A stretch of DNA of 7,576 nt from the IMG/VR virus record IMGVR_UViG_2648501235_000011; one strand, 5' to 3'. Both the position numbers and the translations under genes were made by a program. The stretch comes from a virus (lineage: Duplodnaviria > Heunggongvirae > Uroviricota > Caudoviricetes). Shown here in pieces: positions 4,870 through 5,593 of this stretch. Under the pieces are notes generated by a model. It saw only the letters and a list, made by a program, of their open reading frames with translations. It made no database searches and was not told where the DNA came from. Numbering within the stretch: the first letter of the stretch is position 1; each line of letters begins with the position of its first letter.

Positions 4870-4897
4870 CAAAAAAGCCCGCCTGAACCGGCGGGCT
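4870..4897 (-). terminator. Rho-independent terminator downstream of lom, immediately upstream of the stf start
   Basis: Stem agcccgcc (4876-4883) / ggcgggct (4890-4897), 6-nt loop; A-run 4871-4876 on plus strand gives TTTTTT after the hairpin on the minus strand. Confidence 0.65.
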
Positions 4898-4923
4898 GTC
4901 ATAACACTGTGTTACCTGGCTAA

Positions 4924-5523
4924 TCAGAATTTATAACCGACACCCACGATGAAACCGTCAGTGCGCCAGTCGCCACTGCCGGAGCCTTCATAAGCAATAT
5001 CAATGGCCACGGATTCGGTCGGGTTAAACTGCACGCCAGCTCCCCACGCCAGAGAGGTGTCGCTGTGGCGACCGTCATCACTTCCGGTCAGCACATCGTG
5101 CGTTTTCCCCTTGTTGTCAGTTACGCGAAGATAATCCCCGGAGAAAGTCGACACACGGCTGTAAGCCACACCCGCCATCGCATACGCGCTGAACCATTCA
5201 TTCACGCGCACAGACGGCCCCGCCATTACGCTGAACCAGCGGTTACGCACGGAATCTTCATGCCAGCGGGTATCGCTGTAACGGGTAAGCTGGCGATTCT
5301 TGTCTCCTGCATAGCTGAATGACGTCACCAGCCCCAGCGTGTCCGTAAATTCATAACGGTATTTCACGTTAATCCCGTTAAGATTATCGCTACCGGGAGC
5401 GTTCGTCCGGGCATGAAGATACCCCGCGCTCAGTGTGGACTGATGTTCAGACGCCCATGCAGGCGCACCGGATACGGACAGACAGATGGCTGCGGACAAA
5501 ATGGCTGCACAAACTTTACGCAT
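4924..5523 (-). CDS. lom: Lom outer-membrane protein (Ail/Lom/PagC family beta-barrel)
   Basis: ATG at 5521-5523 with SD GAGAGG about 6 nt upstream; TGA at 4924-4926. Product [28 protein letters not shown]... has a signal peptide with an A-W-A cleavage motif and ends ...[10 protein letters not shown] (C-terminal aromatic residue typical of OM beta-barrels). Closely resembles lambda Lom as I recall it. Located between J and stf as in lambda. Confidence 0.93.
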
Positions 5524-5544
5524 AATTACCTCTCGCTTTTCTGC

Positions 5545-5571
5545 AATAAAAAAGGCGTCATTCCTGACGCC
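5545..5571 (-). terminator. Rho-independent terminator between J and lom
   Basis: Stem ggcgtca (5554-5560) / tgacgcc (5565-5571), 4-nt loop ttcc; plus-strand ataaaaaa (5546-5553) gives TTTTTTAT after the hairpin on the minus strand. Confidence 0.6.
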
Positions 5572-5593
5572 ATTTATTGGGGTTATAAATATT

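Follow-up and report, generated by a model that had tools for sequence, protein, structure and literature searches.

According to the established model for phage lambda, Q-modified RNA polymerase that has started from pR' ignores terminators. Tandem terminators downstream of the lambda J gene, designated t'J1 to t'J4, were reportedly mapped by Luk and Szybalski (Mol Gen Genet 1983). The lambda J-lom-orf401 region (18903-19650) has the same layout as the DNA analysed here, with a nearly identical downstream hairpin and stf start. Phages 434 (OL657226) and mEp460 (JQ182728) also share the J-lom-stf gene order, at ~96% nucleotide identity and with only point differences. The GenBank records of these two phages annotate a terminator at each of the two positions that are equivalent to the hairpins discussed below.

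Morons are defined as extra DNA with its own promoter and terminator, deviant GC content and expression in the prophage, and lambda Lom is cited as a moron-encoded, prophage-expressed protein (PMC3594210). Expression of lambda lom in lysogens has been reported (PMC1151598, PMC7067206), but lom went undetected in a lambda lysogen in an array study, which described the lom promoter as little known (PMC2147009). The timing of Lom-family expression is of some practical value, because Lom-family proteins of EHEC prophages, such as LomW, are being tried out as vaccine antigens (PMC6692519).

The first-pass annotation of the present DNA had described lom as an insulated moron, bracketed by terminators and expressed from the lysogen rather than with the late genes. 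We find that the hairpins on both sides of lom are genuine, selected, conserved and co-oriented elements of the intrinsic terminator type, for which termination itself is predicted. They do not show that lom is insulated with a promoter of its own, nor that it is expressed instead of, as opposed to as well as, the late genes.

The lom gene and its neighbours

The window, by which we mean the whole stretch of 7,576 nucleotides that was analysed, carries J, lom, stf and a small ORF, all on the minus strand. The 3' part of J, the tail-tip or host-specificity gene, occupies positions 5594-7576 and ends with a TGA stop codon at 5596-5594. The gene exceeds the window, its reading frame being open up to the window end, and the part that is present matches the Pfam families Ig_J, Ig_J_second, Phage_Tail_Tip and Ig_GpJ_C. 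The lom gene (4924-5523, minus strand) codes for an outer-membrane beta-barrel protein of the Ail/Lom family with 199 amino acids. Pfam Ail_Lom (PF06316) covers the product end to end (residues 1-199 against profile positions 1-199, E 5e-121), with a score of 402 bits against a cut-off of 23, and the protein shares 95% identity with the Lom of phage 434 and 47% with that of lambda. The side tail fibre gene stf follows at 3546-4859 (minus strand; Pfam phage_tail_N, Collagen and Phage_fiber_C). Its start is likely the ATG at 4859, as in lambda orf-401. Immediately 3' of stf lies the small ORF (MNILRKLMQ...; 3275-3544, minus strand), which is probably co-transcribed with stf.

Many lambdoid and Stx-converting phages match this region with 96-97.5% identity, and identity to prophages in complete E. 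coli genomes reaches 96.8% at maximum. An nleG-family type III effector gene (2690-3169, minus strand; Pfam T3SS_NleG, E 1.5e-43; GC 38%) comes after the small ORF, and a second gene of this family is found at 774-1424 on the plus strand. The window also contains a plus strand ORF of 352 aa (1503-2561), which carries the annotation espW in close relatives, and a minus strand ORF (1-591) of the IpaB/EvcA family. Positions 1-3169 thus represent type III effector cargo of low GC content (30-38%), which adjoins the tail fibre block downstream. This is the usual position of such cargo in EPEC/EHEC lambdoid prophages.

The GC content is 55.5% for lom (GC3 59.5%), 54.1% for J, 59.3% for stf and 37.9% for nleG. 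A deviant base composition, which would be a moron signature, is therefore not seen for lom in comparison with J and stf, whereas nleG clearly deviates.

Hairpins in the gaps before and after lom

J, lom and stf are separated by two gaps only, J-lom and lom-stf, and each of them holds one hairpin. In the J-lom gap, the minus strand reads TGA (J stop)-AATATTTATAACCCCAATAAAT-GGCGTCA-GGAA-TGACGCC-TTTTTTATT-GCAGAAAAGCGAGAGGTAATT-ATG (lom). The upstream terminator (5545-5571, minus strand) consists of a stem at 5571-5554, with 7 bp, 5 of them G-C, and the 4-nt loop GGAA, followed by the T-tract TTTTTTATT to position 5545. The predicted energy of the hairpin is -11.4 kcal/mol. When it is folded in a context of 61 nt, the z-score is -3.4, and 1 of 200 shuffles folds as well. 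The terminator is located 22 nt past the J stop codon and 21 nt ahead of the lom ATG. These last 21 nt (5524-5544, minus strand) make up the lom leader GCAGAAAAGCGAGAGGTAATT, which contains the Shine-Dalgarno sequence GAGAGG and is too short for a promoter.

In the lom-stf gap, the minus strand reads TGA (lom stop)-TTAGCCAGGTAACACAGTGTTATGAC-AGCCCGCC-GGTTCA-GGCGGGCT-TTTTT-GTGGGGTGAAT-ATG (stf). The downstream terminator (4870-4897, minus strand) has its hairpin at 4897-4876, followed by TTTTTG. The stem has 8 bp, 7 of them G-C, and a 6-nt loop, and is predicted at -17.6 kcal/mol; the T-run counts five T after the stem, or six with the closing T of the stem itself. In its sequence context, the hairpin has a fold z-score of -2.0 relative to shuffles. 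It lies 26 nt past the lom stop codon and 11 nt ahead of the stf ATG, and the stf Shine-Dalgarno sequence sits in GTGGGGTGA, immediately 3' of the T-run. Between the lom stop codon and this terminator, the lom 3' untranslated region contains a perfect palindrome, TAACAC-A-GTGTTA (4902-4914), which is kept in lambda and nearly all alleles, and which taken alone is not statistically significant.

The first-pass annotation had given the coordinates of both hairpins correctly, and its claim that terminators flank lom on either side was borne out by a strict scan, by covariation and by conservation. A loose consensus scan identified 10 terminator-like sites, compared to 7.4 +/- 2.6 in shuffled sequences, and thus no overall enrichment; the two lom hairpins were its best-ranked sites. 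With strict criteria, namely a single hairpin of -11 kcal/mol or better and 5 or more T among the 6 nt that follow, there were 4 matches on the minus strand (5571-5554, 4897-4876, 3256-3236 and 2630-2601). In 60 dinucleotide-preserving shuffles the same criteria gave 0.37 +/- 0.58 matches, with a maximum of 2. All four strict matches lie in intergenic gaps and are oriented like the genes. The third terminator (3236-3256, minus strand) closes the stf block, folds with -20.5 kcal/mol in context (z-score -3.1), and is terminator-like on the plus strand as well, i.e. bidirectional. The fourth (2601-2630, minus strand) comes after nleG, and has a 12-bp AT-rich stem followed by T6 (z-score -5.0). 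An Rfam search of the whole window with E values up to 1 returned only the sub-threshold chance matches Trp_leader and ST7-AS1_2, and thus no known RNA family.

Alleles of the upstream hairpin region were drawn from 80 IMG/VR loci, several genome loci and three reference phages. There are 16 distinct alleles, with the same T-tract in all 16. The stem occurs in the variants GGCGTCA/TGACGCC, GGCGCCA/TGGCGCC and GGCACCA/TGGTGCC, the last of which is the compensated allele of phage 434. Among 14 alleles, 2 of the 7 pairs change on both sides with pairing kept, and the double changes are GC-to-AU and CG-to-UA. Overall, 98% of the cells are paired, compared to 24-57% after a shift of the 3' partner by 1-3 columns, and the observed covariation score was reached in none of 500 shuffles. 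The downstream stem is nearly invariant, lambda included, and shows one-sided G-U changes only, so that a covariation test does not apply to it. Within the common allele group, the lom leader and the upstream T-tract are invariant except for a C-to-A change in one locus. Both terminators are found in 84 of the 86 related lom loci with enough flanking sequence, but as these loci are close relatives, the count does not represent independent observations; the remaining two loci have a weakened upstream stem.

In two loci, L004 (GGCGTCA..TGGTGCC) and L054 (GGCACCA..TGACGCC), the two arms of the upstream hairpin belong to different alleles, which would fit recombination crossovers within its 18 nt. 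The receptor-binding end of J is mosaic, with at least three types, and from the T-tract on the sequence is essentially invariant.

Both hairpins thus combine a GC-rich stem and short loop with a 3' U-tract and an intergenic, co-oriented position, as expected for intrinsic terminators, and in the upstream stem pairing has been maintained.

Transcription of lom

It is probable that both hairpins are intrinsic (Rho-independent) terminators, and that they are part of a co-oriented series of four that divides the far late tail operon into blocks. The blocks would be J, lom, stf with the small ORF, and nleG. The Q antiterminator of this prophage lies outside the window, and the following scenario is borrowed from the lambda model. 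During lytic growth, antiterminated polymerase would pass both terminators, and J, lom and stf would share one transcript. In the repressed prophage, polymerase without the modification would halt at both sites. The upstream terminator would then block or attenuate transcription arriving from J, and the downstream terminator would keep lom-directed transcription from entering the tail-fibre genes. For the common allele group of lom, the conserved cassette extends from about the J stop codon to the pre-stf terminator.

The stf ATG follows the downstream terminator after only 11 nt, and stf is thus expected to lack a promoter of its own. Its expression should therefore need read-through of both terminators, which puts lom into the late transcript as well. 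The earlier statement that lom is expressed from the lysogen rather than with the late genes is hence not supported by the anatomy.

A similar argument applies to the start of lom transcription in the lysogen. There are only 21 nt (5544-5524), including the Shine-Dalgarno sequence, between the T-tract and the lom ATG, and so there is no promoter inside the bracket. As there is no room downstream of the hairpin, any lom promoter should be located at the hairpin or upstream of it, and the terminator would be inside the lom leader. Judging from this geometry, lom transcription in the lysogen does not start from within the bracket, and the search for a promoter is narrowed to the hairpin after J and the DNA upstream of it.

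A consensus scan of the minus strand from 4866 to 7576 found no promoter-like site, but promoter prediction is weak, and the scans cover activator-independent sigma-70 promoters only. The 900 nt upstream of lom were also scanned with a position weight matrix (PWM), for which scores >= 8 turn up ~5 times per kb of strand. The best match upstream of lom is TTGATA-16-TGgTAGCGT (5730-5702), in which TTGATA lies ~210 nt and the end of the -10 element ~180 nt upstream of the lom ATG. Lambda has TTGACA-16-AAACGT at equal distance. In a comparison of 33 J alleles, the -35-like element was found to encode (I/V)-D-M-P, a conserved C-terminal motif of J, and conservation was absent from the -10 element. 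We have discarded the TTGATA at 5730 as a lom promoter, since its conservation is due to the J peptide motif. The element (window 5715-5730; TTGACA in lambda), which divergent J alleles have in common, is a pitfall in promoter prediction. A sigma-54 type -24/-12 element in the TGGCGCC...TTGCA of some alleles was also rejected on inspection by eye, because GG and GC are 3 nt too far apart and the allele of the window itself does not have the GG.

The original suggestion of an insulated moron, read as a self-contained unit with its own promoter and bracketing terminators, expressed in the lysogen and outside late expression, appears unlikely. Fels-1, PhiR12_4 and HK97 have no lom at the corresponding place, as expected for an accessory gene, and the one in the window is flanked by terminators, but the downstream terminator is also present without lom. 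The required promoter would have to fit into the 21 nt between the upstream terminator and the ATG, and no conserved promoter is seen further upstream. Exclusion from late expression is at odds with the read-through that stf requires, and a compositional signature of lom is lacking. The literature on lambda can be quoted on both sides, with transcription of lom in lysogens according to some papers (PMC1151598, PMC7067206), and a failure of arrays to detect it in another (PMC2147009).

Alternatively, a weak promoter in the J 3' end, or one overlapping the hairpin, could feed lom, and the hairpin in the leader would then attenuate Lom in the lysogen. Such an arrangement is forced by the geometry if the lom promoter is upstream, as none fits downstream of the hairpin, and the best PWM match, with its lambda counterpart at equal distance, would be a candidate. 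However, the -35-like part of this match is kept for the sake of the J motif, the -10 part is not conserved among J alleles, and the window has matches of this quality every few hundred nucleotides of strand. We therefore regard this alternative as improbable.

It is equally improbable that the hairpins are mainly module boundaries, either recombination linkers or 3'-exonuclease barriers for the segmental stability of late mRNA, and not mainly terminators. The mosaic end of J, with its at least three types, next to near-invariant sequence from the T-tract on would agree with this model, and so would the mixed arms of the L004 and L054 hairpins, if they are due to crossovers inside, and a second mosaic joint inside lom. 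The compensatory changes, though, indicate selection on pairing, and not on sequence identity alone. Moreover, the T-tract that directly follows each stem does not vary between alleles, and the unrelated hairpins of Fels-1 and PhiR12_4 have one as well. A T-tract is a hallmark of termination, and is not needed in a recombination linker.

Even less probable is a regulatory role, with the upstream hairpin as a leader element or attenuator that sets the Lom dosage in a lysogen-specific lom transcript, or with the lom 3' untranslated region and terminator released as a small 3'-derived RNA. The upstream hairpin would then be more than the end of the J block, and would set or regulate the dosage of Lom; the geometry, which leaves a lom promoter no place but upstream of the hairpin, agrees with this. 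Terminator-derived, Hfq-bound small RNAs of lambda are on record from other parts of the genome (bioRxiv 10.1101/2024.10.31.621285). Three small RNAs of lambda, LPR1/PreS, LPR2 and 6S, were considered and set aside, as they are encoded at other places in the genome. The phage 24B small RNA 24B_1, although 'near lom', is unrelated and comes from a different genome context.

Finally, the hairpins could be chance inverted repeats without function, as the lack of enrichment in the loose scan might suggest, but the 4 co-oriented, intergenic sites of the strict scan, compared to 0.37 in shuffles, the covariation in the upstream stem, and the conservation in nearly all loci and of the position in lambda make this next to impossible.

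Comparison with related phages and with morons

The first-pass annotation had referred to the bracket as known for lambda. This is clearly correct for the downstream hairpin, but less so for the upstream one. Lambda has a hairpin with a T-rich tail 20-30 nt ahead of the lom ATG, CGTCCG-GGAA-CGGGCG, which differs in sequence from the one in the window and occupies the equivalent place. It is weak, with 6 bp, -9 kcal/mol, an interrupted T-tract (TTTTATTAT tail) and a context z-score of -0.5. In the lambda records NC_001416 and J02459, neither hairpin is annotated. The comparison with lambda also places a mosaic joint inside lom, at window positions ~4924-5005 (L003 ~1005-1086). Lambda and the window are nearly identical over the last ~27 Lom residues, and likewise in the 3' untranslated region, the terminator and the start of stf, compared to the 47% identity for Lom overall.

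A search of genome contigs for distant lom contexts yielded mostly lambda-contaminated contigs, and few informative new contexts. In assemblies of unrelated organisms, including Neobacillus, Kitasatospora, Pseudomonas, Shewanella, Bradyrhizobium, Enterococcus and several MAGs, ~25 contigs (L091-L119) are 99.5-100% identical to lambda DNA around lom. Several of these contigs are ~48.4-48.5 kb long, at roughly 1x coverage. In public assemblies, they look like contamination with lambda control DNA.

The absence of lom between J and stf in Fels-1, PhiR12_4 and HK97 makes it an accessory gene. In the Salmonella phage Fels-1 (NC_010391) and the coliphage PhiR12_4 (PV340553), there is one terminator between J and stf, with a GC-rich hairpin, T7, a Shine-Dalgarno sequence and the stf ATG laid out like the downstream terminator of the window. 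Its presence in lom-less relatives suggests that the pre-stf terminator is an older feature of the J-stf junction. The downstream terminator may thus not have arrived with lom, and it is not specific for lom. HK97 and the Yersinia phage P840, which are also lom-less, have no canonical terminator ahead of stf. The pre-stf terminator is therefore not universal and goes with this stf lineage. The J-stf gap of HK97 has 207 nt; in it (L125 4045-4160) there is a long inverted repeat, GGAAGGTGCGAATAAGT ... ACTTATTCGCACCTTCC, with the arms ~75 nt apart, and no simple terminator.

With respect to the morons described by Juhala and Hendrix (e.g. HK97 gene 15, PMC3594210), lom is similar in being an extra, dispensable gene of the late operon that is followed by a terminator. 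The definition in the same paper asks for an own promoter and deviant GC content in addition, and neither is seen for lom in the window. The classification as a moron can thus be retained in part, for an accessory gene that is absent from relatives and has flanking terminators, but not with regard to the promoter, for which 21 nt leave no space, and the base composition.

The lom gene of the short-tailed Stx phage 24B belongs to the same gene family and is also found in a lambdoid prophage, but in a different genome context. Its constitutive expression in the lysogen is supported by RNA-seq (PMC4651098), and ARNold found no Rho-independent terminator around the gene (PMC4426718). The bracket therefore belongs to the J-stf context, and not to lom genes in general.

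Taken together, the J-lom-stf terminator architecture of the window is ordinary and already known, and what it says about this EPEC/EHEC-type prophage, namely that the standard lambdoid arrangement with its terminators has been kept, is of little importance beyond housekeeping. The corrections concern the details: the bracket has no promoter, lom should also be read in lytic growth, and the pre-stf terminator is likely to predate lom. The hairpins fit the standard lambdoid picture, in which terminators that act in the prophage are overridden by antiterminated late transcription.
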